Positions 4,866 to 35,533 of a DNA stretch of 64,000 bases are shown piece by piece (the first letter of the stretch is position 1; each line of letters starts with the position of its first letter). The stretch is from Escherichia coli. Lineage in GTDB: Bacteria; Pseudomonadota; Gammaproteobacteria; Enterobacterales; Enterobacteriaceae. The stretch is from NCBI RefSeq assembly GCF_016903815.1, contig NZ_CP069973.1; one strand, 5' to 3'. The notes under the pieces are model-generated. The model was not told the origin of the DNA, searched no databases, and was given only the letters and a program-made list of their open reading frames with translations. Both the position numbers and the translations under genes were made by a program.

Positions 4866-4952
4866 GCTGAAAAACATAACCCATAAAATGCTAGCTGTAC
4901 CAGGAACCACCTCCTTAGCCTGTGTAATCTCCCTTACACGGGCTTATTTTTT
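4866..4952 (+). ncRNA. cyaR: CyaR (RyeE) Hfq-dependent sRNA; 3' terminator overlaps the prophage att core
   Basis: Sequence gctgaaaaacataacccataaaatgctagctgtaccaggaaccacctccttagcctgtgtaatctcccttacacgggcttatttttt recognised from memory as CyaR; ends in hairpin plus T-run. Confidence 0.8.
4926..4952. repeat. Prophage attachment-site core, left copy (aatctcccttacacgggcttatttttt)
   Basis: Exact 27-bp repeat also at 38117..38143. Confidence 0.8.
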
Positions 4953-5022
4953 ACGCGTAACACAATGAAATAAAAGGATTTATTTCTGGTCACGTCCACA
5001 CATTGACCACATCGACAAAAAA

Positions 5023-5042
5023 GCCCCTCGACTGAGGGGCTT
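5023..5042 (-). terminator. Rho-independent terminator downstream of ogr
   Basis: GC hairpin gcccctcgactgaggggc followed by a U-run on the minus strand. Confidence 0.6.
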
Positions 5043-5053
5043 CCTGTTTGTAA

Positions 5054-5272
5054 TTACATCCACATAATTTGCTGCCCTGACGGCAACGGGTGCGGTCTTA
5101 CGGCGTGGACTTCTCCCGGCTTCACGATGTATCGCTGTACCGACTCATAAGTGATGAATGTGGCGCTGCAATTCACGTTCTGACACTGGTGATAACGCTC
5201 TTTTGTCGTGTCAGTGATATAGCGGCTTGTACGCGCATGTGCGGCATGCTGGCATAAAGGACAATGAAACAT
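5054..5272 (-). CDS. ogr: Late-gene transcriptional activator Ogr (zinc finger)
   Basis: MFHCPLCQHAAHARTSRYITDTTKERYHQCQNVNC...: Cys4 zinc-finger typical of P2 Ogr / P4 Delta; start chosen at internal Met for ~72 aa. Confidence 0.85.
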   Translation of the reverse strand: MFHCPLCQHAAHARTSRYITDTTKERYHQCQNVNCSATFITYESVQRYIVKPGEVHAVRPHPLPSGQQIMWM

Positions 5273-5353
5273 CGCGAGCACCTCTTCCGGTTTTGTTGAT
5301 GGTGCCATTTTAGTTAATTTATCCTTATAAAACAAACAGATAAATAAATTACA

Positions 5354-6517
5354 TCACTCATCATCTTCTGTTTCGTACTCCACATCAGAAAGCCTGACCT
5401 CAAGCTCTAAGGACGTCGTGAAGCCGCTATTATTCAGAAAATGTGTCACCTTAGTGATTGTCCAGTCCTGCTCGTCTATGACGCGCTTAAAGCCTGATAC
5501 TTTAACCGGTGTTTCCGTGTAAATATCAGCACGACCGGTAGCCAGGCTGATGGAGAACTCCGCAACGCCCCGTTGCAGTTTATCCCACTTCGCCTGAGCG
5601 GCACGCATGGCCTGTGCTTTCGTGGCATATACCGTGGTCAGGGCAAAAACGTTGTCAGCCTCACCGGCCATGTATTCACCTTCGCGCGCTTCCGGTACTT
5701 TTGGCGCTTTCTTCTGCCTGACCGGTTTTGCTTTCGGGTGCTCCAGTGCGCGCAGGTGTTTTTCTTTCTTTTTGCGTTTCAGTTTTACCTTCTGCTTTTG
5801 CGGCTTCGGGTCTTTGGTGTGTAACCACTTTGCCGTTACGCCGGTATAGGCTCCACGGTCAGCAATCGCAAAATGATGGCGGTCGCCGTCGCTGCGGGTG
5901 ATGGTAATCTGCGGGATTTTTTTACCGCTGGCCGTCACCCCCTGCCCCGCTTTGAGAAACAGCAGTTTTCCCATTTTTACCGACACCTCACCGCCGTTGC
6001 GTTCTGCAAGACGGGTCAGGAATTTCGCATCAGACTCCTGCGACTGGTCGATGTGCGGGATTTTAATTCCGGCCAGTGACGGAGCGACACTGGCTTCCAG
6101 CCTGTTACGGGAGGCTATCGCCTCAACAATCGCACCGAGCGTGGTGTCATGCCAGGAGCCTTCCCGGCGGGAATTGAGCGTCCCGCGGAAATCTGCACTC
6201 CGGGCGCGGATGGTGACCACATCCGGCGCGCCCCGGTGTTCAACCTCATCAACGGTGAATTTCCCTTTGCATACCAGGGCAAAACCTTTCCAGCCGATAT
6301 ACACCGTCAGGACAGCGCCACGAACCGGCAGCCCGACCTGCCCGTCGGCATCGTTCAGTTCAATATCAAGCTGGTCAGCTTCAAAGCCCCGGTTATCCGT
6401 CAGAGTCATGCTCATCAGACGGTCGCTGATATTGCCGGTAATATCCCTGCTGTCGAGCATCAGCATGTAATCCGGCGTCAGCGTACTGCCTGCATCAAAT
6501 GTCAGCGCATCCAGCAT
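5354..6517 (-). CDS. D: Tail protein gpD
   Basis: 387 aa; size and position match P2 D; lysine-rich central linker. Confidence 0.85.
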   Translation of the reverse strand: MLDALTFDAGSTLTPDYMLMLDSRDITGNISDRLMSMTLTDNRGFEADQLDIELNDADGQVGLPVRGAVLTVYIGWKGFALVCKGKFTVDEVEHRGAPDVVTIRARSADFRGTLNSRREGSWHDTTLGAIVEAIASRNRLEASVAPSLAGIKIPHIDQSQESDAKFLTRLAERNGGEVSVKMGKLLFLKAGQGVTASGKKIPQITITRSDGDRHHFAIADRGAYTGVTAKWLHTKDPKPQKQKVKLKRKKKEKHLRALEHPKAKPVRQKKAPKVPEAREGEYMAGEADNVFALTTVYATKAQAMRAAQAKWDKLQRGVAEFSISLATGRADIYTETPVKVSGFKRVIDEQDWTITKVTHFLNNSGFTTSLELEVRLSDVEYETEDDE

Positions 6518-6996
6518 TATCCCGCCCCCATCATACCTGTGAATCTGGTCGCCAGACTGCCGGCCTTACCGATGAGCGACTCCGCCTGTTTACCGATATC
6601 GCCATAAAGCGCGGCCAGTGATTCATCAACGCGGGTGAGCGACAGCGTAAAATCAATTTTCCGGGGTGTGCCGTCTGCAAAGAAAATACTCCCTGTTTCA
6701 CTCACCTTGCTGATGACATACATACCGTAAATCATGCCGGTGCCATCCAGCAACGGCCACGCCCGGCCTTCCTCTGCCATCAGTCTGAGCGTGGTCATCG
6801 TCAGCTTGCCGCCGGTCAGTTCGGGATAAAGCACACCGGCAAGCGTGATGTTTTCCTCGCCCACACCGAGAAACTGAAAGGCATCCCGTTTACCGATACG
6901 GGAATTTGACGGCCAGCGATAATCTGATTCACGCTGCATGGTCTGGTGTGGCAGCGTCTGGCGCATAAAAACAAACATACCTAACGCGAGCATCAT
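6517..6996 (-). CDS. U: Tail protein gpU
   Basis: 159 aa; position between T and D. Confidence 0.85.
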   Translation of the reverse strand: MMLALGMFVFMRQTLPHQTMQRESDYRWPSNSRIGKRDAFQFLGVGEENITLAGVLYPELTGGKLTMTTLRLMAEEGRAWPLLDGTGMIYGMYVISKVSETGSIFFADGTPRKIDFTLSLTRVDESLAALYGDIGKQAESLIGKAGSLATRFTGMMGAG

Positions 6997-7010
6997 TTTT
7001 CGTCACCTCC

Positions 7011-9458
7011 TTAACCGTCATGCATCATGCTGGCACGGGCGCGCGCACGTTTATCCCGCTCGTATTTTTCGAGCGCATCCTGTAACTGGCGGTCGAGCTG
7101 AGTCCCCGGCGCAGTACCGCCCGTCAGACTGATGTGATATTCGTTTTTACTCTGGTCCACATAAGAGCGGCCAGCCGGTGCCGTAACCGGCTGATAAGCC
7201 TGATAGCCTGCATAAGAGCTGGTCGCCGGAATATAACCACCGGTGCCATACGTGGCGGCATGAGTTCTGGCGGCGGTCTGGTCAAGCGTGCCTGACTCTT
7301 TGTTGATAACACCGAGTTTTTCCAGTACCCAGTCAATACCGCTGCGCAGTTTGTTGAACGCATTAAGCGGCAGCATCAACGCGTCAGCCAGTGCCTGCCC
7401 GAACATGACGCCCGTATCACGGCAACGGTTCAGGGTGTCCCGGGTGGCTTTGACCGGGGCAATCAGGTTTTTAAACCACTGCCACGCGGCCTGTAACTTT
7501 TCGCCCAGCCAGTCAAACACCGGCTTAAGTGGCGTGAACAGTTCCCCCACCGGCGCAAATGCCGCTTTCAGCCCTTCAACCACACCGCCAAAGAATGCGC
7601 TGACAGGCTCCCAGTATTTACGGATAAGTAACGCCCCGGCGACAATGGCGGCCACCACGGCCACAACCGGCCAGCTAATCGCCCCGATGGCCGTCATAAC
7701 AGCACTGCCAACCGTCGTGAAGATTGCTCCCATTGCGCCTGCTGCCGCGATGATGGCATTGATGCCGGTGATAACCGGCCAGGCTACGAGGCCAATGGCA
7801 CCGATGACACCAATCAGTGCCAGTGCACCACCGACAATGATGCCGATGGTTAACGCCAGTGATTTGTTTTTCTGTATCCAGCCGTCGAGTTTTAACACAT
7901 ACTTTGTGGCCGTCTGCGTGAGCTTACGCAGTGCGCCTTCCTGCTGGTCAAACAGGTCAGTCCCCACCGCCTCATAAGCGGACTGAAACTCCTTAAAGTC
8001 ACCGCCGAGGTTGTCCTGCATGATATTTACCAGCTCGGCGGTCTTCCCGTCTGAGGCTTTAAACGCAGCGGTCAGTTTGTCCAGCTTTCCAGTTGAGGCG
8101 GCAGTCATCAGCACGGCGGCGGCTGAGCTGGCCTCCTCCCCGAAAATAGTTTTCATGTATTCAGCCTGCTGGGCAGTACCGAGCCGGTTTTTCTCAAAAC
8201 TGGCCTGCATTTCTTTCAGAATGGTAAATACTGGTCGAGTATTCCCTTTACTGTCTGAGGTTTTCACGCCAAGCTCTTTCAGTGCATCCCATGCTTTTCC
8301 CGTCGGTGCCTGCAGGCGGCTTAACACGGCACGGCTTCCCGTCCCCGCCATTGAACCGGTAATTTTTGCATCATGCAGCGCCCCGACCATTGCGGCGGTT
8401 TCTTCAATGCTGACACCAGCATTTTTTGCCACAGGTGCGGCATAGGTCAGCGCATCGCTCATGCCATCAAAATCGGCGGCGGTTTTGTTCATCGTCATGG
8501 AGAGAACATCCCCGATATGAGCGACCTTATCGTTTGAAAGCTGAAAGGCGGATTTCATCCCCATCAGCAGGGCGGCGTTTTCTTCCATCGTGCGACGGTT
8601 CGCCAGCGCCATATTCAGCGTGACCGGCGTTGCCGCCTGAATGGCATCAACATCCCCACCGGCTTTCGCAATAATAATCTGCGCACCGGCTGCATCATCT
8701 GCCGAGGCTGCGGTATTGTTGCCGAGCTGGCGCGCCTGCTTGCGTAGTGCAGCCATTTCGGCGGAGTCTTTTGCCACACCGAGCACAGCCTGCAATTCTG
8801 AGTTTTTCTGCGCAAACTCATAACCGGGCATCAGCAACTTAACTCCGGCCATCGTTCCCGCAGCAGCAATCCCCACACCGGCAGCGCCCACCGAGGCCAT
8901 ATTTCCGGCCAGTTCCTTTCCGGCCTGATAACGCTGTTTTACTGCGTTAAGTTTTGCCTGTTGTGCACTGACACGCGCCAGCGCGTCACGCTGACGGTTA
9001 AGCTGTGCGGTGGTTTCACTGATACGGTTTTTCAGTCCCTGCTCATCATGTGCAAGATTGCGGGTATTAATTCCCACAGCGGCCAGTTCCCGCTGCTGGC
9101 GTTTAATGGAATCTGTCAGGCGGTTATATTTCGCCTGTAAGTCCTCCGCCGCACGCTTTGCGGATTCCAGCACTTTCGCCTGAGCACGGGTCGGACGTTC
9201 GGTATTTTTAAACTGTGTGGCAAGGGCTTCGGCCTCCTGCCGAGCCTTTTCAAGTGCATGACCAGTCACGGCGAGCTGTGCACTGGTCTTGCGGAATCCC
9301 TCAATACGGGATGCCTGACCGTTCAGCTCGCGCAGTGATTTTTGTGTTTCCCGGATATCCCCCGACAGCGATTTGCTCGCTGTGCGGATGGATTTAAACG
9401 GGCGGGATGCCTGGTCAACAGCCCTGAGCAATACCTGTAATTTTACATTGTTACTCAT
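7011..9458 (-). CDS. T: Tail tape measure protein gpT
   Basis: 815 aa; long coiled-coil N-terminus, Gly/Ala-rich hydrophobic central region. Confidence 0.9.
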   Translation of the reverse strand: MSNNVKLQVLLRAVDQASRPFKSIRTASKSLSGDIRETQKSLRELNGQASRIEGFRKTSAQLAVTGHALEKARQEAEALATQFKNTERPTRAQAKVLESAKRAAEDLQAKYNRLTDSIKRQQRELAAVGINTRNLAHDEQGLKNRISETTAQLNRQRDALARVSAQQAKLNAVKQRYQAGKELAGNMASVGAAGVGIAAAGTMAGVKLLMPGYEFAQKNSELQAVLGVAKDSAEMAALRKQARQLGNNTAASADDAAGAQIIIAKAGGDVDAIQAATPVTLNMALANRRTMEENAALLMGMKSAFQLSNDKVAHIGDVLSMTMNKTAADFDGMSDALTYAAPVAKNAGVSIEETAAMVGALHDAKITGSMAGTGSRAVLSRLQAPTGKAWDALKELGVKTSDSKGNTRPVFTILKEMQASFEKNRLGTAQQAEYMKTIFGEEASSAAAVLMTAASTGKLDKLTAAFKASDGKTAELVNIMQDNLGGDFKEFQSAYEAVGTDLFDQQEGALRKLTQTATKYVLKLDGWIQKNKSLALTIGIIVGGALALIGVIGAIGLVAWPVITGINAIIAAAGAMGAIFTTVGSAVMTAIGAISWPVVAVVAAIVAGALLIRKYWEPVSAFFGGVVEGLKAAFAPVGELFTPLKPVFDWLGEKLQAAWQWFKNLIAPVKATRDTLNRCRDTGVMFGQALADALMLPLNAFNKLRSGIDWVLEKLGVINKESGTLDQTAARTHAATYGTGGYIPATSSYAGYQAYQPVTAPAGRSYVDQSKNEYHISLTGGTAPGTQLDRQLQDALEKYERDKRARARASMMHDG

Positions 9459-9878
9459 TCGTGTTTCCGCTTCGCCGGAGCGCCTTTTCGCGCCATGTGA
9501 TGAGTTCGGTCAGGCTCATGGGATACAGTTCTGATGGCGGCCAGTGAAATATCACTGCCACATCCGCCATCAGGTCATCGACCGACAGATTTTTTGGAAA
9601 CGTCACTGCACCGAGTTCGGCGACAAAAAACCGACCACCTTACCGGCCAGCGCCACAAGGTCAGGCAGTTCCAGCGCGGCGACTTCCTGCTCGGTCAGCA
9701 TCGGTGCCGTCATGCGCGGCAGCACCTTAATCAGTGCATCGACTTCAGAGTTCGCGACCGCTGCCAGACTGACACCGCGCAGCGTCCCGGCATTGGGTTT
9801 CATCAGCGTGACCTGTTCGATAACCTGCTCACCACGCTTGACCGGATTGTCCAGGGTAATCACATTTTCTTTGTTCAT
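9451..9878 (-). CDS. Tail assembly chaperone E+E' (programmed -1 frameshift product)
   Basis: Slippery T_TTT_TTG on minus strand (plus coords 9624..9630) with E codons TTT/TTG in the zero frame; -1 frame traced by hand to a TAA at 9451..9453, overlapping the gpT start. Confidence 0.65.
9603..9878 (-). CDS. E: Tail assembly chaperone gpE
   Basis: 91 aa; position between FII and T; slippery heptamer near 3' end. Confidence 0.85.
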   Translation of the reverse strand: MNKENVITLDNPVKRGEQVIEQVTLMKPNAGTLRGVSLAAVANSEVDALIKVLPRMTAPMLTEQEVAALELPDLVALAGKVVGFLSPNSVQ

Positions 9879-9934
9879 GGTTTTCTCACTTCTGAATCGG
9901 GGTTAACCGGTCAGCCAGGCTGACCGGATGAAAA

Positions 9935-10453
9935 TCACAGGCCGATATTGCGGCGGTGTTGCTCCAGCCGGTCGACGCCGTTCACCTTCTCAATCATGTT
10001 GATGGTGTCGATTTCGACCAGCTCCTTACCGTCCATCGTCAGCCGGAAATAGGTGCAGACCACGGAGATTTTCGACTCGGTATCTTCTCCCTGTTTGCCC
10101 TCGCCGGTGTCGATTTCTTTCTGACGTCCACGCATGACCACCTCGACGGCCACCGTTTCGCCGGTATCGTCGCGCTGGTAAGAGCCTGCAAAACGAATCG
10201 GTACGGAATCCACACCGGTTGCGGCGTAAAGCTCCCAGATAACCGAATCCGGGAAGCCACCGAGCGACCACTCCATTGACAGCGCATCGTCATCAAGGCC
10301 GAGGTCTACCGGTGCGCTGCCGTTCATCCCCGCACCGCGATAGTTTTCGAGCTTACGGGTCAGTTTTGGTAGCGTGACGGACTTCGCGACGCCCTGATAG
10401 CTGTAGCCGTTCAGAAAGACGTTCATTAACTTGAGTTTGCGCGGCATTGCCAT
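9935..10453 (-). CDS. FII: Tail tube protein gpFII
   Basis: 172 aa; size and position. Confidence 0.85.
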   Translation of the reverse strand: MAMPRKLKLMNVFLNGYSYQGVAKSVTLPKLTRKLENYRGAGMNGSAPVDLGLDDDALSMEWSLGGFPDSVIWELYAATGVDSVPIRFAGSYQRDDTGETVAVEVVMRGRQKEIDTGEGKQGEDTESKISVVCTYFRLTMDGKELVEIDTINMIEKVNGVDRLEQHRRNIGL

Positions 10454-10465
10454 CGGTCAGGCTCC

Positions 10466-11656
10466 TTAATTGCTGTTAACCGAGGTGACCAGATTTGCCA
10501 GGTATTTATCGGTAATACGCTGGCGCAGGGTCAGGTTTTCAAGAGGAGGCACCGGTGTATAGTCGTAGTCGATATACAGTTTTCCGGCCTTGAGGGTTTC
10601 CGCATCGTTGGATTCTTCGCTGAACCAGCAGGTCGCATCCACGATATAGCCGTTTGTTTTCAGCTCACGGAATTTGGCATTGATGCCGTCAACGATGTCG
10701 CGAATCAGCGTTGCGGTGATGGGCTTGTCCACCGCCCACATGTGCGCCTCAGCCATCGTGTCGGCCATCACCTGCGCGGTGCGGGTGTAGTTTTCAAAGA
10801 GGAACAGCGGGTCATCAGAGCAGGTACGGTTACCCCAGAATCGGAAACCGTCGCGGCGAATCAGCGTAGTGACGCCTGACTCGTTAAGCAGGTCAGCATC
10901 GGTGCCGGACTCCTGCAAATCCCAGAATACAGATGCGCTGATGCCGGTAACACCGTTTACCCCGACGTTGGACAGCGTTTTATGCCAGCCCTGCTCCTGG
11001 TCGATTTTAGCGCGCAGACCCAGCGCACGGGCGGTGGCATACGCGGTGGCGGTGGTACTGGTGACCGTATCCCATGCGAGGAAATCCGGCCAGATGACCA
11101 TCAGCTCACGCTGGCTGAAATTCTGGCGGTAGGCTTTCACCTCGGAAATGGTCTTACAGCTCCATGCGCTGATATATCCGAAAGCGCGCAGCTTCTGACA
11201 GACGGATGCCAGTGCAACTGCCACCTCTTTGGTATCCAGTCCCGGCACACCGAGAATACGCGGTTTAACACCGGTTACCGACTCCGCCGCCAGCAGGGCT
11301 TTTAGTCCGGTGTACTGACCGTTTTCGTCGGTGGTGCCGATGATATTGGAAACGGTCTGCGCGAGTTTCGTTTCCTCGTCGTCGCCGGTGCCGTCTTCCA
11401 CACGCACGACTACGGTGACCGGTTTTGACTGGTCAGCGATGGCCTGCAACGACGCCGCCAGCGTGCCTTTTTTACCGGCCTTTGCAATTGCGCTCTGCAC
11501 ATTGGTAATCAGCACCGGTTTATTGAGGGGGAAGATTTCCGCATCCGCATCGCTGGCCGTGCAGACCATGCCGACAATGGCGGTGGATACGGTGGAAATG
11601 ACGCGGGTGCCGTCGTTAATCTCCAGCACCTGCACGCCATGATGATAGTCGCTCAT
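10466..11656 (-). CDS. FI: Tail sheath protein gpFI
   Basis: 396 aa; size and position. Confidence 0.9.
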   Translation of the reverse strand: MSDYHHGVQVLEINDGTRVISTVSTAIVGMVCTASDADAEIFPLNKPVLITNVQSAIAKAGKKGTLAASLQAIADQSKPVTVVVRVEDGTGDDEETKLAQTVSNIIGTTDENGQYTGLKALLAAESVTGVKPRILGVPGLDTKEVAVALASVCQKLRAFGYISAWSCKTISEVKAYRQNFSQRELMVIWPDFLAWDTVTSTTATAYATARALGLRAKIDQEQGWHKTLSNVGVNGVTGISASVFWDLQESGTDADLLNESGVTTLIRRDGFRFWGNRTCSDDPLFLFENYTRTAQVMADTMAEAHMWAVDKPITATLIRDIVDGINAKFRELKTNGYIVDATCWFSEESNDAETLKAGKLYIDYDYTPVPPLENLTLRQRITDKYLANLVTSVNSN

Positions 11657-11985
11657 CCGTTTAACTCCGTGGTTAATGGGTGCAACTATTTTCTGTTGGG
11701 CAGTGCATGAGACGCCATTTGACCTGGCTGGTCAGTGGATGAAACAACAGATAAAGAAAATGCGGGCAATTCGCCCGCCTGTCCTGATTTGCACACACTC
11801 ATTTTCCGACTGACAGTTTACATAGCCCAAAAGTTATCAAATCTGACAGTCTGCTTTGAGCAAGAAGCGGACATTTGCCTGTCAGGGTATATGCCGCTCT
11901 GTGGTTATTATCCAGAATCAATAATTCATCTGAGTTGGATGACATATAAAACATAGTTACTCCATGAATAACCATTAGCAGATTA

Positions 11986-12579
11986 TCAATTATGTAAATC
12001 TTTTGTTTTATGTTCTTTAGCGTATTGTGACAACAAATGGCTATAGCGTTTAAGCAAAATATTAGAAAGATTAAGCTCATTCATGAAGTGTTCTTCTAAT
12101 AAGTAACCATCAATATCAACTTTAATATCATTACCACTTTTCATCTTCTGTAACGTAGATTTCACACGCTCCAGCAGGATGCTTTGCTCATGGTAATAGT
12201 CCATAAGAAGAGTAACATCCTCTTTATCAAGCTTACTTAATTCGCTGAAGTAGGATTTAAACACTTTATCAGTCTGGTTTAATGCAATCTGTAAGCGAGG
12301 CCCCCCTAATGATTTGACATTAATGGCAAAAGGCTCGCCAACAAAATGCTCCGAATTTTCGTCAAAGCCAATATATCTCGTTTTATCAAGAAAAGTGAGA
12401 GCGCGATGGTTATTAGCGATTTCATATGCAAACATTGTTCTGATACTGTCCCTCTCAGCCTCCATGCTTATATCATCACGGTGATTTGTATAAAATATAT
12501 TTCCAACAAAGAGAACCATAGCAAGAATCACTGAACTTGCCTCCCAGTTAATATTTTTAAATCGTCGCTTAGTAAACAT
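11986..12579 (-). CDS. AT-rich cargo gene at the Z/fun locus: membrane-anchored protein of unknown function
   Basis: 197 aa; N-terminal TM helix (SSVILAMVLFVGNIFY) then charged soluble domain; lies between G and FI where P2 carries Z/fun; visibly AT-rich. Confidence 0.6.
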   Translation of the reverse strand: MFTKRRFKNINWEASSVILAMVLFVGNIFYTNHRDDISMEAERDSIRTMFAYEIANNHRALTFLDKTRYIGFDENSEHFVGEPFAINVKSLGGPRLQIALNQTDKVFKSYFSELSKLDKEDVTLLMDYYHEQSILLERVKSTLQKMKSGNDIKVDIDGYLLEEHFMNELNLSNILLKRYSHLLSQYAKEHKTKDLHN

Positions 12580-12800
12580 ACCGCACCTTAATTATCAAAA
12601 ATATTCCTTCAGTGTTATCTGGTTAGCCTAAACCAAGTCATTAAAGTCCGCAGGATATCATATACATAAAATGTATTGATTAGAATTTGCACTAATAAAA
12701 TAATGCTTTACTGAAATCTACTCCAGACATAGAGCGGCCTGTCAGATTAGGCTTTACTCTGTGCCATAGATATGTAATCTCACACCAGAGCTTATACAAC

Positions 12801-13328
12801 TTATTGCGGCATTTCCGGCCATTCAGGATTTACAGGATCCACACGGCTGACCAGAACGCTGTAGCGTTCCCATGACTCCAGTCGTGCACGTTCCTCATCC
12901 GTCGCCATATTCAGCCTGACAGCGCGTTCCAGTGGCTGAATAACGCTTTCCGCTTCGGAAAGTAATGCGGCCTTTTGTGATTCTGCCTGTTGTTGCTGTT
13001 CATCTGCCGTATAAATCCGTTTAACCACAGCACCATCCTTAAACATCCATTTACCTGAGTCGTCAGCACGTCGGTTGGAGGTAATATCAGGAACCTCAAC
13101 AACGCTAAAACCTTCAGGGTTAAGCGTTGAAGCATCTCTGGTGATAGCGACAATAATATTATTTTCATCGTAAACAATCTTTATTGTGTCTGGCTGAAAG
13201 TTCTTCACTTCCTCATACCAGTTTTTTCCATCCTCAGAGTAAAGCCAGATAACTCCGTGTTTCTTTGTTAACTCATACTGTTCCAGTGTTTTAGCGTTAC
13301 CCGCTTTTATGTTCTTTAAGTGCATCAT
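12801..13328 (-). CDS. G: Tail fibre assembly protein gpG
   Basis: 175 aa; immediately downstream of H. Confidence 0.85.
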
Positions 13329-13329
13329 A

Positions 13330-15351
13330 TTAAACGCTCGCTACATTATACCAGGTGCCATTTATATACTTTTGAACGGGTCTGTAATAAACGCCCGCTA
13401 TATTATCGGCAGAGTTGGACCCTGTATCCTGAACATTAATACCAGACAATACATGACCTGACGGGCACTGGAAATTCCATGTTTGCCAGTTGTTCACTCC
13501 ATAATATTGCTGTGAACCAAGTCGAACATCTTTCACATATCTGGAATCAAAATTGCCATAGTTGCCAGGAATAACTTGCGAGCCACAAAGCCAGTTACCG
13601 TTATTATCCATGTACGCCTGACCATCGGTGCCATTGGCTGTCCTTGAGTTATTAATCATGTAGATGCCAAATTGCTTGTTCCCCAGTCCACCTATCATGA
13701 ACTTGCGGTCAGCGTGATTCTGGCGAAGCAACGCCTGAGCGCTATCAGTGTTAACTATATTTTTCCCAAAGATAGCGTTGTTATCGCGCATCTGAATCCA
13801 CATACCATTACTGCTGTTAATAGCAAAACGGTCTGAAAGCGTCTCCCCTGAAACATTAAGGCCACGCCCCATCGAAACAGCGCCAGTAGCGTTATTAATC
13901 CATAATGGCCTTAATCCGTTATAAGTCCCCATGTTGTCACCGGAGTTTGTCAACATGAAGTATGTATTTGAACCATCATTACGAATAAAGAATCCGTAAT
14001 TACCATAAGCAATACGTAGGCCGTTTGCTGATTTTGATATGACTTCGCCATTTACAATGGCATTGACAAGAACATACAAAGCATCCCATTTAAGATTCAT
14101 CAGGTCTTTTGTTGTAGTACTCTGGCGGCTTCTCCATTTGAAATATTCATTGCCGTTATCCCCCGTTTCAAACCACATGAATGAATCAGTGTCACCATCG
14201 GCATCATTTTTAAATCCAATCTTCGCCCAGTCAGTATTTCGAATCCAGGCAAGGATTGAGTCGTTTTCAAAAGTAAGTCCACCGGACAAGGTATCGCCAT
14301 TTTTTTGCACGGCGTTCCCGGCTCGGTTTACCGTTTCCTGTAAACCGAGATATTCGATAACGGCGGCAACGGTCGATTTAGCCAGAATATCCCGCCCGAC
14401 TTTTGTCAGGGTTGCCAGGCTGGCAACATCATTCCCCATAAAATACGGAAACCTGTCTGCCGCAGTAGCAAGCCCCGCCAGTGCCGTCAGGGTGGCATCT
14501 TTCGGTTGCTTCCCCGCAAGCGCATTAGTCATGGTGGTAGCAAAATTCGGGTCATTGCCCAGCGCCGCCGCCAGCTCGTTCAGCGTATTCAGTGCGTCAG
14601 GCGACGAGTCTACAAGGGCGGCAATCGCGGCCATAACGAAAGCCGTGTTTGCGATCTGAGTATTATTCGTTCCCTGTCGCGCAGTTGGCGTCGTTGGCGT
14701 TCCGGTCAGTGCAGGGCTGTTTAATGGCGCTTTCTTGTTCGTTTCATCCATTACCGTCTTAACGGCTTTCGGCGTTGCAGCCAGTGTTTCAGACGTGCTG
14801 TTGGTCGCACTGCTTAACTGAGTAAAACCTTTTGCGGTCAGCGAGGCGTCAGGGTGACGTCGTGACTGTTCATGTTCTGCAATTTTGTCATCAACGTAAT
14901 CCTGCGTCGCCATCACCGTTGTGGTGTCGATGGTCAGATCCACTGAGGCCACACTGCTGACGATAATGACCATGCGGCAGGTCTGCGAACGTCCTGAGCC
15001 TTCGGCAAGGGCTGGCTTATAACTTTCGGCCATGTTCGCCACGGCAATTAACGTTCCTGCATCATCGTACAGGCCAAGCTCACGCATCCAGAAACCGCCC
15101 ACCTCCGGCGGAATAACCAGCTCTGCGATAATATAATTACTGTTTCGTTTGTCCTGGCTGATTTTGTTCAGCGCATGTCGCCAGACTTCGTGGATAAGCC
15201 CGGTCTGTCCGGCATCCGGGACAGGCAATTTACCACCGCCATCCCCGACGGCCATCGTGGTAATGTTGACCTTCCGCCCTCCCGGCGCGGTTGCCGCTGC
15301 CAGCTTTGCTGCACCGGCAGTGGTGATAACGGTTTTGAATTTTGTGCTCAT
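13330..15351 (-). CDS. H: Tail fibre protein gpH
   Basis: 673 aa; conserved N-terminus ([21 protein letters not shown]), Ser/Thr/Asn-rich distal domain. Confidence 0.9.
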
Positions 15352-15361
15352 TATTCCTCAC

Positions 15362-15892
15362 TTATCCGGGGTAAACCGTAATTACATCGCCGTCATAAGC
15401 CACACCACCGGCAAACAGGTAGCCGGGAATGTCCCGGGTAATGTTCAGACCAATAAGGTGGCGGCTTGCAGGTTTGGCATCAGCAATCAGCCGTTCCATT
15501 TCCTGATACATTGCCTCTGTGATGCCGCTTTCCAGTACACCAATATCAAGCCGGAAGGTGCCGGGCGGGTCACTGTTTTCCCACCACTCCGTCACGTTGA
15601 TGAGATAGCCGAGCGGCTCCACCACACGCCGGATTGCACCTATTGTGCCTTTATGACAGTGGATGAAATACGCATCGCGGATAACGGCGCGTTTTGTCGC
15701 TTCCGGCCACTTTTCATCCCACCTGTCGACCGAAAACGCCCACGCCAGCCACGGCAGCAGATTTGCCGGACAGGTGTCCGGGTTCCACAGCTCACGAATA
15801 CTGACCGGCGTTTTTTCAATTTCCGCACAGGCTTTTGCGGCGGCGACCTCAAGCGGTGATGAGCCGGTCGGCAGCAGTCGCGAATCACTCAT
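15362..15892 (-). CDS. I: Baseplate protein gpI
   Basis: 176 aa; position. Confidence 0.85.
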   Translation of the reverse strand: MSDSRLLPTGSSPLEVAAAKACAEIEKTPVSIRELWNPDTCPANLLPWLAWAFSVDRWDEKWPEATKRAVIRDAYFIHCHKGTIGAIRRVVEPLGYLINVTEWWENSDPPGTFRLDIGVLESGITEAMYQEMERLIADAKPASRHLIGLNITRDIPGYLFAGGVAYDGDVITVYPG

Positions 15893-16793
15893 CCGAGCCT
15901 CCGGTCACGACGCGGTATTCGGTACAGAAAGACGCCTGCGTACTGTTGAGCACGATGTCGGCCAGTGGTGCAGCCAGTTCGACACGCTGCACACCTTCCA
16001 CATGCAAAGCGGCATAAATGGCAGACAGACGGATGTCGCGCCCCAGCCGGTGCTGTGCCGTGATATACGCTTCCAGCTTTTTCACAGCGGCAGCGCGGAT
16101 GGGTTCGCTTTCGGGACCAGGGTAAAGGTAAAGCGTGGCGTTTATCTGGTATTCAACGATGGCGGCAGACTGCACGGTCACGCGGTCGGCCACCGGCCTG
16201 ACGTCCTCGCCATTAAGGGCGTTACGCACCACAGCCAGCAGGTCTTCGGATGCGACGCCGTTATTTTCACGTGACAGCACAGAGATGGTGACACAGGCAG
16301 GAGACGGACTGGTGACAGAAATATCCGCGACACGCCCGTCAGCACTGCGACCATGATACTGATAGGCTCCCACTGACCCGGCGACGCTTAAGCCCTCAAA
16401 AGCCTGCTGAATACGCAGACGATAATCGGTGTCAGATTCCATCACTGCCGGTGTCGGTGGAATGGTCGAATCATCTGCCGGGGTGATAGTCAGGCGCGTG
16501 GTGTTGTAATTGGCACCAATCACATCAAGGTCATTACCGGCGGCACAGGCCAGCATCACCGCCCGTGCGGCCTCATTCACACGCTGACGCCAGATAAGCT
16601 CACGATAAGCATTTTCTTCCAGCAGTTTGACGAGAGGCTCAGATTCCAGTGTCAGGGTACGGGCGACCGCCTCCTGCTGATCTTCCGGGTAAAGGGAAAT
16701 CAGTGTCGCCTTGCGTTCAGCGAGAATGCTTTCAAAGTCCAGCTCCTCGACCACATCTGGTGCGGGTAGCTGGTTCAGGTCGATAATCGGCAT
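15885..16793 (-). CDS. J: Baseplate protein gpJ
   Basis: 302 aa; position. Confidence 0.85.
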   Translation of the reverse strand: MPIIDLNQLPAPDVVEELDFESILAERKATLISLYPEDQQEAVARTLTLESEPLVKLLEENAYRELIWRQRVNEAARAVMLACAAGNDLDVIGANYNTTRLTITPADDSTIPPTPAVMESDTDYRLRIQQAFEGLSVAGSVGAYQYHGRSADGRVADISVTSPSPACVTISVLSRENNGVASEDLLAVVRNALNGEDVRPVADRVTVQSAAIVEYQINATLYLYPGPESEPIRAAAVKKLEAYITAQHRLGRDIRLSAIYAALHVEGVQRVELAAPLADIVLNSTQASFCTEYRVVTGGSDE

Positions 16794-16797
16794 GGTT

Positions 16798-17145
16798 TCA
16801 ACTCACAGGGATGGTTAATGAAAGTGGCTGGCCGGTGTCGTTGTGCTGGCCGGTTAACGTGACCGTCATTCGCCCGTCAAAACTGCGCTCAGTGGTGACG
16901 GATGACAGGGTGACGCGGGGTTCCCATTTCAGCACCGCCATGTAACAGGCGACCTTAATCTGCAACTCAAGCGCCGGGGTCTGCGGCTGGTCAATCATTG
17001 ATGCCAGCAACGAGCCGTAATCACGACGCATCACCCGTGAGCCGACCGGTGTGCGCAGGATATCGCCGATACTCTGGCTGATATGCTCAAGGTCAGTGAC
17101 AGTCAGGCCATCACTGCGATTCATTCCGAGATAACGCGCTGTCAT
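16798..17145 (-). CDS. W: Baseplate protein gpW
   Basis: 115 aa; position. Confidence 0.85.
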   Translation of the reverse strand: MTARYLGMNRSDGLTVTDLEHISQSIGDILRTPVGSRVMRRDYGSLLASMIDQPQTPALELQIKVACYMAVLKWEPRVTLSSVTTERSFDGRMTVTLTGQHNDTGQPLSLTIPVS

Positions 17146-17771
17146 AAAGGACTCCCGGTTGTGCCGCCGCTGTCGCCGGGGTGTTTGTGGGTATGCAGTA
17201 CCTTACCGTTTGATGAGAGTTCACCGCCGGTGTGTTCAATGTTGCCGCGCATCGTCCCGCCCTTCTGCACTTCCAGCGTGCCGGTAGTCAGTTTGTTAGT
17301 GCAGACCACTTCTGGTGTGTCCAGGGTGACGCGGGTTGATGCTTTCACCGTGACCACTGGTACCGTGGCAGTAACAGAATCAGAAGCCGTCACGCTGGCC
17401 GTTTTAATTCCGCTTACCGTGAGTGCACTGGTTTCAGGTTCATACTCAATCACCGCCCCGTCAGGGAAACGGATATGCAGGGCATCCGCCGACGCAGACG
17501 GCGCAGGGTTATCGCCGGAATAAATCCCCGGCAGAACGAACGCCGTGTCGAGTTCACCGCCCACGGCCAGAATCAGCACCTGTTCCCCCACGGAAGGTGC
17601 CCACCATGTGCGCGAACGCCCAGCGCGATGGGTCAGCCACTGAAGCCAGTCGGTGCACATGCCGCCAGTCTGCACACGGCAGCGACCGGCATTAAGGTCG
17701 GTTTCGACGATAATGCCAGTGCGAATCATATTGCGTATAAAGCGAAGAATTTCATTGTATTGTGCATTCAT
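17142..17771 (-). CDS. V: Baseplate spike/assembly protein gpV
   Basis: Start chosen at MNAQYNEILRF for a P2 V-like length; the upstream ATG at 17849 is an alternative. Confidence 0.8.
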   Translation of the reverse strand: MNAQYNEILRFIRNMIRTGIIVETDLNAGRCRVQTGGMCTDWLQWLTHRAGRSRTWWAPSVGEQVLILAVGGELDTAFVLPGIYSGDNPAPSASADALHIRFPDGAVIEYEPETSALTVSGIKTASVTASDSVTATVPVVTVKASTRVTLDTPEVVCTNKLTTGTLEVQKGGTMRGNIEHTGGELSSNGKVLHTHKHPGDSGGTTGSPL

Positions 17772-17857
17772 TCGATAATAATGATTCTGTACAATCTCGA
17801 AGTAAATCACACCACGATTTCTGGTGCACAGAACAACAAGGGACAACAAAATCCATT

Positions 17858-18931
17858 ATGAGTACTTACTTTTTCTCGTCAGAAACAATGAAAGAATTGT
17901 TCAAAGATTATCTGGTCTTTTTGAACACGCTGACTCCCAGCACAAACTTTGAATCAAACAGAAACAAAATAATTGCTCAAGCAATAAACTTCATTTCCGA
18001 AAACCCTGAAGATTGGGACAAAAAATCCCAGTACAACATTGCTATGATTGGCGACACCTTTAAAAGTTTCTTAAGAGAAAAGGGGGAAGATAACAACAGC
18101 ATCAACCTTATATTCACTTGCTTTTTTAGATTTATCATTGAACCAAGCATTCTCTCTCCGGAAATAGAGTCTCACTTTTCACCACTAAGAACCATCAAGG
18201 ATTTTGCTCTGTATAACTATAATGAATTCGATGAGCGGAGCAGAGCACAGATAGACTTTTCTCTTAGAGAACTGCCATTAGCAATGGTTAAAGAAGTTTT
18301 AAGCTCCAGCAATGTTGACACATATAAAAAATACATTGATAGTTTAAACGAAGGGCGTCAATTTTTCGAAAAGTGCGACTCCTTCTTAAAGGAGCAACAT
18401 GCCAAAATAGAGTCAATTAAAGAGTCATTAAAAGGGTATGAGGTCGCATTTAATTTTGTTGGATTGTTTGATGGCTTTAATTCACTTGGCAAAAAGAAAG
18501 AAAGTGAAATCATGCTATCAAGAATAATTCTTATCATCTTGGCTATAATCATTCCCTCCCCGCTGATATACTATGGAATGCATAAATTACCAACTCTCGA
18601 AACGACAAATGCTGCCACATATTTTATGTCAGCACTACCTTTTGCATCAGTTACATTGATTTTCATGTATTACTTTAGAGTTGTACTGATAAATCATATA
18701 TCGTTACGAACTCAGATTATGCAAATAGAACTCAGAAAGAGCCTTTGTCAGTTCATTCAGAGTTATAGCGACTATTCCTCAGAGATAAGGAAAAACAATC
18801 CGGAAGCGCTTTCAAAATTCGAAGACGTAGTATTTTCAAACATCATGCTATCCGATGATAAGATACCATCTACATTTGATGGCATTGAGCAAATAGCATC
18901 GTTAATCAATTCATTAAAAAATGGAAAGTAA
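17858..18931 (+). CDS. AT-rich cargo gene at the orf30 locus: protein with two C-terminal TM helices, unknown function
   Basis: About 357 aa from MSTYFFSSETMKELF; soluble N-terminal domain, two hydrophobic helices (IMLSRIILIILAIIIPSPLIYYG; AATYFMSALPFASVTLIFMYYF); opposite strand to flanking tail genes; own terminator. Confidence 0.65.
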   Translation: MSTYFFSSETMKELFKDYLVFLNTLTPSTNFESNRNKIIAQAINFISENPEDWDKKSQYNIAMIGDTFKSFLREKGEDNNSINLIFTCFFRFIIEPSILSPEIESHFSPLRTIKDFALYNYNEFDERSRAQIDFSLRELPLAMVKEVLSSSNVDTYKKYIDSLNEGRQFFEKCDSFLKEQHAKIESIKESLKGYEVAFNFVGLFDGFNSLGKKKESEIMLSRIILIILAIIIPSPLIYYGMHKLPTLETTNAATYFMSALPFASVTLIFMYYFRVVLINHISLRTQIMQIELRKSLCQFIQSYSDYSSEIRKNNPEALSKFEDVVFSNIMLSDDKIPSTFDGIEQIASLINSLKNGK

Positions 18932-18936
18932 TGATA

Positions 18937-18959
18937 AAAGGCCAATAACTGGCCTTTTA
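18937..18959 (+). terminator. Rho-independent terminator after the orf30-locus cargo gene
   Basis: Hairpin aaggccaataactggcctt followed by T-rich run. Confidence 0.6.
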
Positions 18960-19033
18960 TTTATTAACATGAAAATTCAAAATAAATTATGCTAATCAAT
19001 TGATTTCTATCTTATATTCTCAGATGATTAAAT

Positions 19034-19486
19034 CTAACGATTCAGGTGAGCCAGGATAATCTCTTCAATCATCTGCACATCCTCACCGGTAAAGCCAAGC
19101 AGAGGACGCGCCGGATAATCAATTTTCTTACCGTCTTTCCGGGTTTCTTCCGACAGACCGAACTGATGCACACTGGCGATTTTCGGTGACTTCCCGCCGT
19201 AAAACTCCATTGATGCCTGTTCAGGGCTGGCGCGGATATGCAAAAAACGACTGGTGATAAGTTTCGCAAACATTTTTCGCTTAACGCGACCGGTCTTTTT
19301 TCTGGCGCTCTGCTGCTGGCGTGGTGCGTAGGGTGTGCCGTCCGGGGCTTTCTGTGCCATCACCCGACGCTGCTGACTCTGCCGCAGACGTTTCGCCAGT
19401 TCTGCACTCAGTCGCCGACGCCCAGACGGTGACAGCGATTCAATCAGTCCGGTCAGCCGGTCTTCAAAACGCTTAAACTCATTCAT
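19034..19486 (-). CDS. S: Tail completion protein gpS
   Basis: 150 aa; position. Confidence 0.85.
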   Translation of the reverse strand: MNEFKRFEDRLTGLIESLSPSGRRRLSAELAKRLRQSQQRRVMAQKAPDGTPYAPRQQQSARKKTGRVKRKMFAKLITSRFLHIRASPEQASMEFYGGKSPKIASVHQFGLSEETRKDGKKIDYPARPLLGFTGEDVQMIEEIILAHLNR

Positions 19487-19946
19487 CCCACTTGCTCACC
19501 AGTTCACCATTGATATAAAGCTCCATCGGGCGATTGACTGGCTCCGGCGGCGGAGGTTCCGGGATATTCTTCACATGCAGCGCACCGTCAACCTCACTGA
19601 CCAGCGTTCGCTCGGTCAGCATCAGGCTGATGCTGATATCAAAGCTGCTGTCATTGTTGATGTCTGCATAAAACGTGAAACCTTTTTTCTGACCTTCGTC
19701 GGTGGTCATGATGTCGGGCTGATTTTCCCGCAGCCACGCCAGCACCGGCACGATGAGCAGGTCAAAATCACCGGTAAAGTCGGTCACAATCACATTGAGC
19801 GTGTAACGCTTTTCGAACGACAGCGACGTCGCCAGCGTGGAGGCAATACTCCCGTTATCCACGAATATCCGCAGCATCTCTGGACTGGTTTTCAGCACCG
19901 TGACGGCATCAGTCAGCGCCCTGCGCAGGCTGTCGGGTTTGAGCAT
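19479..19946 (-). CDS. R: Tail completion protein gpR
   Basis: 155 aa; position. Confidence 0.85.
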   Translation of the reverse strand: MLKPDSLRRALTDAVTVLKTSPEMLRIFVDNGSIASTLATSLSFEKRYTLNVIVTDFTGDFDLLIVPVLAWLRENQPDIMTTDEGQKKGFTFYADINNDSSFDISISLMLTERTLVSEVDGALHVKNIPEPPPPEPVNRPMELYINGELVSKWDE

Positions 19947-20199
19947 CGTTTTCGTCCTGACAGTGTTTAATCATTTTTACCTGGCTGGCACAACGTGCCA
20001 GCGCGTTCTCAAGCTGCCGGATATCGGCACTTAAATCGCCGTTCGTCTCCGGGTCACTGCCCGGCATCGGGCAAAGGCTCACTTTCGGGCAGGCGTTGGC
20101 GACAATCACTGGCGTCGGTGCAGGCGGGGCGCTGGTGCAACCGGCGCACAGCATCAGGCAGGTCAGCACCATACCAGCGGCGAAAATCTTCGTTTTCAT
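19909..20199 (-). CDS. lysC: Lysis lipoprotein LysC (Rz1-like outer-membrane spanin)
   Basis: MKTKIFAAGMVLTCLMLCAGC lipobox signal, Pro-rich; embedded out of frame within lysB. Confidence 0.7.
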   Translation of the reverse strand: MKTKIFAAGMVLTCLMLCAGCTSAPPAPTPVIVANACPKVSLCPMPGSDPETNGDLSADIRQLENALARCASQVKMIKHCQDENDAQTRQPAQGAD

Positions 20200-20479
20200 T
20201 AAGTAACCTCGTGATGGTTTTCTCGCGCTGTGCTTCACGCTTCGCGGCGTTCTCCAGTTCCTGACGCAGTGCCACCTGCGCCAGCTCGTTTTTGTCTGCC
20301 CTGGTGATGGCAACATGAAGCTGATTTTTCAGCATGGTGATGGTCGTCTGCTGTTCACTGGCGACGTTATTCGCCCTGTCCAGCGAGGCGCGCAGGCTGG
20401 CATTTTTGTGTTTCACCAGAAACAGACCGGTCACCGCCAGCGATAACAACACGACCAGCACAATCATCAGCTTTGACAT
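20054..20479 (-). CDS. lysB: Lysis protein LysB (Rz-like inner-membrane spanin)
   Basis: 141 aa; N-terminal TM anchor then coiled-coil. Confidence 0.8.
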   Translation of the reverse strand: MSKLMIVLVVLLSLAVTGLFLVKHKNASLRASLDRANNVASEQQTTITMLKNQLHVAITRADKNELAQVALRQELENAAKREAQREKTITRLLNENEDFRRWYGADLPDAVRRLHQRPACTDASDCRQRLPESEPLPDAGQ

Positions 20480-20892
20480 AGTTCCCGCCCCTCAAAACGC
20501 TGACGGCAGGCCGTACGTATCAGCCGGAAGAACACCGATACCACGAGATAAATCAGCGCGGTAAAAATCCACCCGGCAGCGACCAGCGAGATAAACGTCG
20601 CCACCATCACCACCAGAGCCGCCGCCCGTCTGCGCCACGGCACCGGCTGCAAAAACAGCGACGTGACGATCTTCACGGCCAGCGATTCCGGCGGCAGCTC
20701 CCGCCCGTAGCGTTCCAGCACATACTCCGTGGCATACACGCCGACACCACCGGCAACCACACAGATAACCGTCGCCAGAATCGCCCATGCAGCGACAAAA
20801 CTGACGGCCACGCTCTGCGGGTAAATCAGGGACAGTGCCAGCATCAGCGCCAGCGACACGTTCAGCATCAGTGAAAGGGATAATTTCTTCAT
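20467..20892 (-). CDS. lysA: Lysis-timing membrane protein LysA
   Basis: 141 aa; multiple TM helices; between K and lysB. Confidence 0.75.
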   Translation of the reverse strand: MKKLSLSLMLNVSLALMLALSLIYPQSVAVSFVAAWAILATVICVVAGGVGVYATEYVLERYGRELPPESLAVKIVTSLFLQPVPWRRRAAALVVMVATFISLVAAGWIFTALIYLVVSVFFRLIRTACRQRFEGRELCQS

Positions 20893-20906
20893 GGTGTTTA
20901 CTCCGT

Positions 20907-21404
20907 TTAAGCCGGTACGCCGCCAGCGGTACGCCAGACGGTGACCAGTTTTTCCAGTGAATGCTCACGCTGACCGTAACCGGCACCCGGCAGGGACGCC
21001 CAGATATTGCGACAGCGTAAAATGGCGCGCTCAATGCGTCCCGCCCGGATGTCATCCAGTGCACCGCGTTCGCGGATCAACTGAATGGCGAGCCTGTCCT
21101 GTGACAACGGACTGAAATCCGGCAGGGCAAGCTGTTTGCGGTAGTGCGGCCAGAACAGGTAAAGCTGCTGATAGCGACCGGAGGCCGTGGATTTTTCACC
21201 GCGACGGTTAAACACCTTCGCCGGTCGGCCATGCGCGAACGGGTGGTCACTGTAGTCGGTGAAAATTTCCGGCTTCCCGTCCAGTCCGGTGACTATCACG
21301 TCATAGCCCCGGTTTTTCGTCAGCGGATGATTCGCCGTCCCTTCGGACACCGCCAGCATGTCGAGAAAGGCAGCGATATTCTGATGCGTGTTAATTACCG
21401 GCAT
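20907..21404 (-). CDS. K: Endolysin gpK (lysozyme family)
   Basis: 165 aa; position after holin. Confidence 0.85.
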   Translation of the reverse strand: MPVINTHQNIAAFLDMLAVSEGTANHPLTKNRGYDVIVTGLDGKPEIFTDYSDHPFAHGRPAKVFNRRGEKSTASGRYQQLYLFWPHYRKQLALPDFSPLSQDRLAIQLIRERGALDDIRAGRIERAILRCRNIWASLPGAGYGQREHSLEKLVTVWRTAGGVPA

Positions 21405-21685
21405 TACGGTTTCCCCCTGCCCTTAAAGCGGCGCTGAATGGCAATCTCAATCACCTGATAACCGGCGATACCCAGCATGGAGCCGATGCCGCACACCGCA
21501 GGCAGTGACAGGTCAGGAAACTGCACCAGAACAACACCGGCAACCATCGAGACAAAACCACCGAGCAACATGCGCCCGATAAACAGACGCGGGGTGATGG
21601 GTTCACCACCGGCAAGCACCTTGCCGACAACAATCAGCACCCCAATCATGAAAAGCGACAGGACGCTTTTTTCTTCTGCTGTCAT
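21404..21685 (-). CDS. Y: Holin gpY
   Basis: 93 aa; TM helices, charged C-terminus. Confidence 0.85.
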   Translation of the reverse strand: MTAEEKSVLSLFMIGVLIVVGKVLAGGEPITPRLFIGRMLLGGFVSMVAGVVLVQFPDLSLPAVCGIGSMLGIAGYQVIEIAIQRRFKGRGKP

Positions 21686-21688
21686 GCG

Positions 21689-21889
21689 TTACTCCCACAG
21701 ATTGACAGTTTCAGCCACGGGCGCGGTCTGAACGTCGGGCAGTTCGACGGCGGTGCCGTGTGGCAGCACCGCACCCAGTTCAGCCAGTCCCGGATTTGCG
21801 GCGAGCACGGTCTCAACCACGCCCTCAGTGCGCCCGTAATACCGGACACAAATGGCGTCGAGCGTGTCGCCCTGTAGCGCAAAGGTCTT
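21689..21889 (-). CDS. X: Tail protein gpX
   Basis: About 66 aa from MKTFALQGDTLDAICVRYYG; upstream of Y. Confidence 0.8.
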   Translation of the reverse strand, partial: KTFALQGDTLDAICVRYYGRTEGVVETVLAANPGLAELGAVLPHGTAVELPDVQTAPVAETVNLWE

Positions 21890-21891
21890 CA

Positions 21892-22398
21892 TCAGATTTG
21901 ACTCACGATGCAGCGCGGCTTGTCCTGGATGCGCGCCACTGCCCAGCGCATATCCCGCCACAGTTCATCAATGGTGCTGTCAATGCTGTCGGCCTTCTTG
22001 TCGCCTTTCGCACTGGCATCCACGCCGCGATAACGCTCATAAAGCGACGCGGTCGCCATCGCACACACGGCGCGCTCGTAGTAAAAAACTTTGATGCTTT
22101 CACCGTCGATGTCGTCCGCCGGGACGTCAGCCAGACGCGAAAAACCGGCAGCAATTTTCTGTTCGCGGTACTCGTACAGCTCCGCATTCGTCTCCGCCAT
22201 GCCTGACTTGACGGCCTCACGCAGACGGGCGGGGGCGACAGTCTGCTCAAGGCGCATACGTTCCCGGACGCGCTTCGGGTCGATATCGGGAAAAAAGAAC
22301 GTGTTTTTAATCACCGGCTCGTCGCCTGCCGGTTGCGGGATGACCACCGTACCCTCACCGGACACGGGAGCCTCCTTTCGCGGAATAATCAGCGTCAT
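21892..22398 (-). CDS. L: Head completion protein gpL
   Basis: Start chosen at MTLIIPRKEA for a P2 L-like length; position. Confidence 0.8.
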   Translation of the reverse strand: MTLIIPRKEAPVSGEGTVVIPQPAGDEPVIKNTFFFPDIDPKRVRERMRLEQTVAPARLREAVKSGMAETNAELYEYREQKIAAGFSRLADVPADDIDGESIKVFYYERAVCAMATASLYERYRGVDASAKGDKKADSIDSTIDELWRDMRWAVARIQDKPRCIVSQI

Positions 22399-22500
22399 CA
22401 TGACTACCTCTGAAAAGTCGGGCGGTGGACGCCGGTGCAGTGTCAGGTGATTCACCCTCACTGACCGGCGTGCCGCCCTGGCGCGGGGCGCATTCGGTTG

Positions 22501-23244: not shown

Positions 23245-23247
23245 CGG

Positions 23248-24321: not shown

Positions 24322-24375
24322 AGTTATTCCTGAAATTAAGGGTTAATCGTGAAGGTTTTCCCGGACTGCCCCCGG

Positions 24376-25230: not shown

Positions 25231-25403
25231 TGTCAGGAGTCCTGAATAGTGATTAGAGGAGTCACATGTCGGCATCAGTTTCCCGACGATGCGCATCCTC
25301 CGCCATCAGTCCCGGATGGCTTATCACTGACACAACAGCACCTTAGCGAATCGCGGGGCGCGACTCAGTAGCCTTGCCGTGTATTCATCACGGCGAGGTA
25401 TTC

Positions 25404-35503: not shown

Positions 35504-35533
35504 TTAAGTGCGTTAAAAACTCTGGTTAATTAC

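Follow-up and report, generated by a model that had tools for sequence, protein, structure and literature searches.

The 3' end of the gene for the small RNA CyaR lies, in this Escherichia coli chromosome, directly against a P2-like prophage, and this raises the questions of how the phage came to occupy the site, whether the RNA gene and its terminator survive the insertion, and whether the prophage is still a competent one. The window analysed here is the whole stretch of 64,000 nucleotides from contig NZ_CP069973.1, and all coordinates are positions in it unless stated otherwise. We conclude with high confidence that the tyrosine integrase of a P2-type temperate phage (Peduovirus) inserted it into the 3' end of the CyaR gene, the attachment site that such phages prefer in E. 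coli; this preferred attB is presumably the site called locI (Barreiro & Haggard-Ljungquist 1992). A P2-type prophage in cyaR is a known and common arrangement, and the first-pass annotation of this DNA read it correctly. The genome paper on E. coli W names the 'cyaR RNA' as the insertion site and lists Wphi2 (P2) in W, ogr-D' in K-12 and P2*B in B (PMC3032704), so that Wphi2 and P2*B share both insertion site and phage type with the window prophage in other strains; ryeE in E. coli is also described as 'previously known to be targeted by phages' (Bobay et al., PMC3603311).

The cyaR gene and its terminator

An Rfam scan of the whole window returned two matches at the gathering threshold, one of which is CyaR_RyeE (RF00112) at 4864-4949 on the plus strand, with 100.7 bits against a gathering score of 47 and an E value of 6e-19; the match spans the entire covariance model (positions 1-85 of 85). 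From this match and the length of the K-12-type RNA, which includes the U tail, we place the cyaR (ryeE) gene at 4866..4952 (87 nt, plus strand), as the first-pass annotation had it. The RNA is predicted to fold into three hairpins (-19.8 kcal/mol, z -3.0) and its sequence is the same as in the empty-site strain YDC107 over all 87 nt, including the terminator hairpin and the 8-nt tail, and the gene is thus intact. Synteny agrees with the assignment, as the open reading frame directly preceding cyaR (3420-4781) is yegQ (trhP), annotated as yegQ in strain 7/2, YDC107 and K-12. A promoter scan found no strong sigma-70 match upstream of cyaR, as an activator-dependent promoter (cAMP-CRP) would lead one to expect. 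Elsewhere in the window there is a TPP riboswitch (RF00059, 71.8 bits) at 54324-54420 on the minus strand, in the part of the E. coli chromosome where the thiMD leader lies.

The intrinsic terminator of CyaR, identified by both a terminator scan and the minimum free energy fold, occupies 4917..4952 on the plus strand. It has an 11-bp stem (4917-4927/4934-4944) with, as read from the sequence, one U.G wobble (T4921 with G4940), a 6-nt loop (4928-4933) and a T tract at 4945-4952. Most of it belongs to a direct repeat: the 27-mer AATCTCCCTTACACGGGCTTATTTTTT is present in exactly two copies in the window, at 4926-4952 and 38117-38143, the second of these being the exact repeat reported in the first-pass annotation. 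No further copy is found in the window even with three mismatches allowed, and the repeat was matched in none of 100 dinucleotide-preserving shuffles. Of the 36 nt of the terminator, 27 fall within the repeat; these comprise the loop, 3' arm and T tract in full and 2 nt at the end of the 5' arm, whose first 9 nt (4917-4925) belong to the host alone. Two earlier statements require adjustment on this account. The terminator had been equated with the repeat, and the repeat does carry the 3' part of the gene, but the terminator as a whole is longer, with 9 nt outside the repeat. It had also been proposed that the prophage supplies the 3' end of an intact cyaR; the gene is indeed intact and its RNA is that of the empty-site allele, but a phage origin of these bases would follow from the integration mechanism and not from the bases themselves, since the two cores are identical and the point of strand exchange and the phage-derived bases of the left core are therefore invisible in the sequence.

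Attachment cores, arms and the empty site

The 27-bp repeat is identical to the reverse complement of the annotated attP core of phage P2 (NC_001895 24356-24382). The left-hand core (4926..4952) forms the ogr-proximal junction on the cyaR side and the right-hand core (38117..38143) the int-proximal junction on the yegR side, with the prophage body, whose late genes are on the minus strand, lying between them at 4953..38116. Counting one core, the prophage extends from 4953 to 38143 and is 33,191 bp long (core start to core start), as compared with 33,593 bp in P2. Its left end carries ogr (5054..5272, minus strand) and its right end int (37024..38037, plus strand), the order given in the first-pass annotation. 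At the right-hand core there is neither a terminator-like site nor a hairpin using the core, and the matching 5' arm is absent there.

Joining the two inner flanks (37900-38143 and 4953-5120) reconstructs an attP whose 412-nt alignment with that of P2 is ungapped and has 11 mismatches (~97% identical); the alignment takes in the sites annotated in P2 for the P and P' arms, IHF and Cox, all of which adjoin the cores on their inner, phage sides. The binding sites for IHF, Int and Cox given here are putative, being positions mapped from the P2 annotation. The IHF-site region of the P arm maps to 4953..4984 (P2 24324-24357) and contains, at 4956-4968, a cluster of six substitutions relative to P2, the sole cluster of differences in the attP; all but one of the window's bases at these positions are also present in the K-12 remnant described below. 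It is followed by the P-arm Int sites at 4988..5015, with GTCCACA and GACCACA repeats identical to P2 24293-24320, and then by the terminator of ogr and the F operon at 5020..5043 on the minus strand (P2 24265-24288), for which the terminator scan reports a hairpin at 5021-5042. On the other side, two TGTCCACA repeats constitute the P' arm Int sites (38003-38029) and are followed by the Cox-binding region (38027-38100), both within the segment mapped from P2 24399-24496; there is a single mismatch with P2 across this side of the attP alignment. The Int protein of P2 binds the core as well as two arm sites, the latter with the consensus tgTGGaCa (PMC3448106). At least 120 viral contigs of IMG/VR also contain the AATCTCCCTTACACGGGCTTATTTTTT core, and contigs of 32-36 kb often have it at each end.

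The host side of the junctions is equally clear. When the host flanks are joined (4353-4952 and 38144-38743), the resulting 1200 bp are found uninterrupted and 100% identical between yegQ and yegR in E. coli YDC107, and deletion of 4953-38143 in silico yields the sequence of the YDC107 empty site. Homology between empty-site genomes and the window ends at 4952 or 4960 and resumes at 38117, the endpoint at 4960 in some genomes arising because the empty-site and window sequences still partly agree there. The alignment to an empty site that had been suggested at first pass thus puts the breakpoints at the core edges, with a contiguous attB in YDC107, and the repeat lies exactly at both host/phage junctions rather than away from them.

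Among 5426 complete E. coli genomes the site is un-split (empty or with a short remnant only) in 4565, the int-core-yegR junction is present in 807 and the cyaR-core-ogr junction in 1125; subtracting these counts gives an estimate of ~15% of genomes with a P2-type element at both junctions and ~6% with a left-end remnant like that of K-12. Strain 7/2 has both junctions 100% identical to those in the window and is 99.2-99.5% identical elsewhere, with another gene at the orf30 locus. In K-12 the 629 bp at this locus contain ogrK and a D' pseudogene (yegZ), flanked on one side by an intact core and on the other by a degenerate one, GAACTCTGCTACACGGGCTTATTTTTT, which has five mismatches to the 27-bp core, in agreement with the first-pass description of a cryptic P2 remnant. 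Like the window, K-12 has the cyaR-core-P arm-ogr junction and a nearly identical variant of the IHF region, but it retains 629 bp where the window has a full-length genome between two perfect cores; with its second core degenerate, the K-12 remnant cannot excise.

These observations are consistent with a simple route of integration. The attP and attB would share an identical 27-bp core comprising the terminator loop, 3' arm, T tract and the two 5'-arm bases next to the loop; Int, assisted by IHF bound between core and P arm, would exchange strands within the core, so that each end of the prophage is left with a copy. The core on the cyaR side would join the host-encoded 5' arm and so rebuild an unchanged CyaR terminator, and the core on the int side, lacking a 5' arm, would form none. 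Excision would call for Int, IHF and Cox acting on both junctions. We infer recombination by this route from the observed sequences and junction positions, the identity to the P2 attP and the matching empty sites, and we found nothing that contradicts it.

Two other readings of the junctions can be weighed against the same data. A 27-bp repeat could in principle be due to chance, to the duplication of a terminator, or to a target-site duplication made by a different mode of insertion, and the existence of a direct repeat is the one observation in favor of this. Transposon target duplications are far shorter than 27 bp, and the identity of the repeat to the annotated P2 attP core, the P and P' arms on its phage sides, its absence from all 100 shuffles and the coincidence of the empty-site breakpoints with the core edges leave this reading with a negligible probability; a duplication arising other than by recombination is refuted by the attP reconstruction and the empty-site comparison. 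It is also conceivable that integration alters CyaR function, through termination, read-through antisense to ogr or stability, such that a lysogen is in effect a CyaR variant. The sequence past the T tract does change, from GTGCATAA in the empty site to ACGCGTAA in the lysogen, and 70 nt further downstream there is a second hairpin, that of the ogr terminator, which could work bidirectionally. However, all 87 nt of the RNA are the same in the lysogen and the empty site, and among the matches listed in the survey of other genomes described below imperfect terminator stems (with a wobble or a mismatch) occur in 8 of 17 loci beside P2-like arms and in 44 of 102 elsewhere (Fisher p = 0.80). We therefore regard an effect of this kind as very improbable, and favor integration at the core with cyaR left unchanged.

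In this respect the prophage resembles a broader group of elements. Tyrosine integrases that use the 3' ends of tRNA, tmRNA and sRNA genes have attP cores that duplicate the 3' part of the RNA gene, which is restored by integration (PMC3448106, PMC3603311, PMC3333887). Comparable insertions are those of phage 186 in a tRNA-Ile gene, of Fels-2 and SopE-phi in ssrA, and at the ryeB/sdsR locus in Salmonella. The window differs from the tRNA and tmRNA sites in that the target is the terminator of an Hfq-type sRNA and not a tRNA-like fold, and its core is short by comparison with tRNA, tmRNA and sRNA sites, 27 bp covering part of a hairpin.

Gene content and competence of the prophage

A tblastn search with 42 P2 proteins matched all 37 core genes, mostly at 93-100% identity, the exceptions being H (67%), C (65%) and cox (82%). 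The P2 gene set is collinear (Q P / O N M L X Y K lysABC R S / V W J I H G / FI FII E T U D / ogr / int C cox B A), and nucleotide identity to P2 is ~97% over 85% of the left 25 kb. The essential P2 genes are all present by tblastn and are full length apart from a shortened A; the structural and lysis genes, int, cox, C and cos are all intact. The late-gene activator Ogr is identical to that of P2 over 72/72 residues, and the 337-residue integrase is full length and 99.7% identical to P2 Int. The 19-nt cohesive-end sequence of cos is located at 28380..28398 (minus strand) and is an exact match to P2 cosL. The putative immunity repressor C (36609..36908, plus strand; 99 aa) and Cox (36212..36487, minus strand), which is the excision directionality factor and the repressor of Pc, have lower identities to their P2 counterparts (65% and 82%), indicating that the immunity type differs from that of P2.

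The prophage thus shares with P2 the 27-bp core, near-identical arms and Cox region, the gene order and cos; it differs in its tail fibre protein H, in an A protein shorter by ~75 aa and in the six substitutions of the IHF region. The P2 genes orf30, fun(Z), orf91, tin and old are absent, with other genes in their place. The fun(Z) and orf30 loci contain genes at 11986-12579 (minus strand) and 17858-18931 (plus strand); one product is 197 aa long with an N-terminal hydrophobic segment (phrog_3829, unknown function) and the other is ~357 aa with C-terminal hydrophobic segments (phrog_9373, unknown function).

A three-gene cargo occupies the old/tin hotspot between cos and gene A (28597-32118). 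It encodes a GHKL-type ATPase (HATPase_c_3; 474 aa), a PF20553 'putative O-methyltransferase' of 330 aa whose gene overlaps that of the ATPase by 4 bp, and a convergently transcribed C5 DNA methylase of 385 aa. PADLOC recognises a Dcm methylase in the cargo and nothing else; for the ATPase and PF20553 proteins there is no match in PADLOC, NCBIfam or the PDB sequences, and the PHROGs to which they belong are of unknown function. The cargo region has no match in phage records, and 45 of the 5426 E. coli genomes carry it, always at an identity of 99% or above. The P2 hotspots are known reservoirs of anti-phage systems (PMC9122126), and it is possible that this cargo is an uncharacterised defence or modification module.

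Gene A itself (32395..34458, minus strand) encodes a replication protein of 687 aa, as compared with 761 aa in P2 and 759-761 aa across P2 and vB_EcoM-720R8. The tblastn alignment covers residues 1-684 of 761; homology stops at about residue 666, where A meets the cargo region, and the last ~20 codons diverge there. The first-pass view that a complete P2-like genome is present is borne out by the full set of essential genes and the exact cos, with the reservation that A is without ~75 C-terminal residues. The shortened A means that the element may be unable to replicate after excision.

The prophage could be correctly integrated and yet locked in, with a truncation of A caused by a swap of the cargo module blocking rolling-circle replication, such that no infectious phage would result even from an excised genome. 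The end of homology at the cargo edge would fit this proposal, as would the PGAP call of the strain 7/2 equivalent of A as a pseudogene 'missing C-terminus', and the confinement of the cargo with this A allele to the same 45 genomes, where it is always at least 99% identical, with no sequenced phage record. On the other side, no part of A is less conserved than the missing tail, which is absent from the A protein (694 aa) of the viable phage 186, so its loss is possibly harmless; the ori nick site (P2 nt 29892, at ~residue 620 of A) is within the retained part by alignment; and the other essential genes, cos, int, cox and the att arms are intact. On balance we consider a defect of this kind rather unlikely, while giving it appreciably more weight than either of the alternative readings of the junctions, and we favor a P2-type prophage that may still be able to excise.

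Neither a Tum homologue nor a LexA box was found in the prophage, and the C repressor is a 99-residue helix-turn-helix protein without a cleavage domain. With all three lacking, no SOS induction is expected, and P2 is classically non-inducible. Mitomycin C treatment, which had been proposed as a way to detect excision, is thus probably uninformative as a test of this prophage.

A diverged arm at the empty site and cyaR loci beyond E. coli

The host DNA to the right of the prophage has a relationship of its own to the phage end. The 63 bp flanking attB at 38144..38206 align end-to-end with the IHF/P-arm segment of the phage at 4953-5019, with 46 of 68 columns identical in a global alignment and a score of 20; shuffled sequences score -10.5 +/- 4.4 with a maximum of 6, and none of 2000 reach the score observed. 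The two segments have the 15-mer CATTGACCACATCGA in common as an exact match. YDC107 has this flank at its empty site and K-12 has a shorter variant of it, and its resemblance to the phage segment suggests that it is what remains of the arm of an earlier, P2-like insertion. A search of phage records for a donor of this arm matched only host DNA included in those records. Because yegR is in a position analogous to that of ogr we considered it as a candidate relative of Ogr, and no alignment was found. Between the diverged arm and yegR there is a perfect 11-bp inverted repeat at 38212-38245, AGCACGATGCC ... GGCATCGTGCT; it has no T tract on either strand and sits at the place taken by the ogr terminator in the phage end.

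A scan of species-representative genomes with the conserved CyaR motif identified at least 120 loci, of which 119 could be scored. Among the matches listed, 17 of the 119 have P2-like IHF/P-arm sequence immediately after the CyaR terminator (local alignment scores of at least 39; the background does not exceed 19, apart from two loci at 24 and 28). These 17 are distributed across Escherichia (including E. albertii), Citrobacter, Enterobacter, Buttiauxella, Trabulsiella, Huaxiibacter and other Enterobacteriaceae, and ogr is found within 1.2 kb in 5 of them. The 27-mers at the core position of these loci take eight forms, which follow the local terminator allele. The junction in Citrobacter youngae is 83% identical to the annotated attP, IHF and Int sites of P2, and we found no sequenced phage with a core of the Citrobacter type. 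The suggestion that phage occupancy leaves damaged, chimeric terminators was rejected on the comparison of stems given above.

The same cyaR/P-arm arrangement, with CyaR alleles that are not of the E. coli type, is present in two metagenomic viral contigs. Contig L127 (6700-7100, minus strand) has a C-A mismatch in the terminator stem beside a P2-like arm; its core variant was found as a single copy in the scan, and the contig does not include the other end of the element. Contig L128 (1-420, plus strand) contains a decayed element, with DNA from the ogr side joined to sequence of the portal gene. A further contig, JAIJJM010000051.1, is labelled 'MAG: Collinsella sp.' and has a cyaR-core-P arm-ogr junction of the E. 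coli type with an Ogr that is 100% identical; this is probably E. coli contamination of the bin.

Taken as a whole, the survey suggests to us, tentatively and at somewhat less than even probability, that the 3' end of cyaR is an attachment site of ancient origin, to which P2-family phages have kept across the Enterobacteriaceae, and that the 'empty' E. coli attB is itself a scar.

For this strain the finding matters little beyond correct annotation, that is, the exact borders of the prophage and the recognition that cyaR is intact in the lysogen. The locus is variable among strains (empty, with a 629-bp remnant, or with a full prophage), which makes it useful for strain typing and for the interpretation of CyaR studies, and the prophage is of more interest for the variable cargo loci that it carries than for its location. 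If the site is as old as proposed, repeated insertion and decay would have written the DNA downstream of cyaR, possibly including the 3' arm of its terminator, and the phage cores and the terminator would have diverged together.
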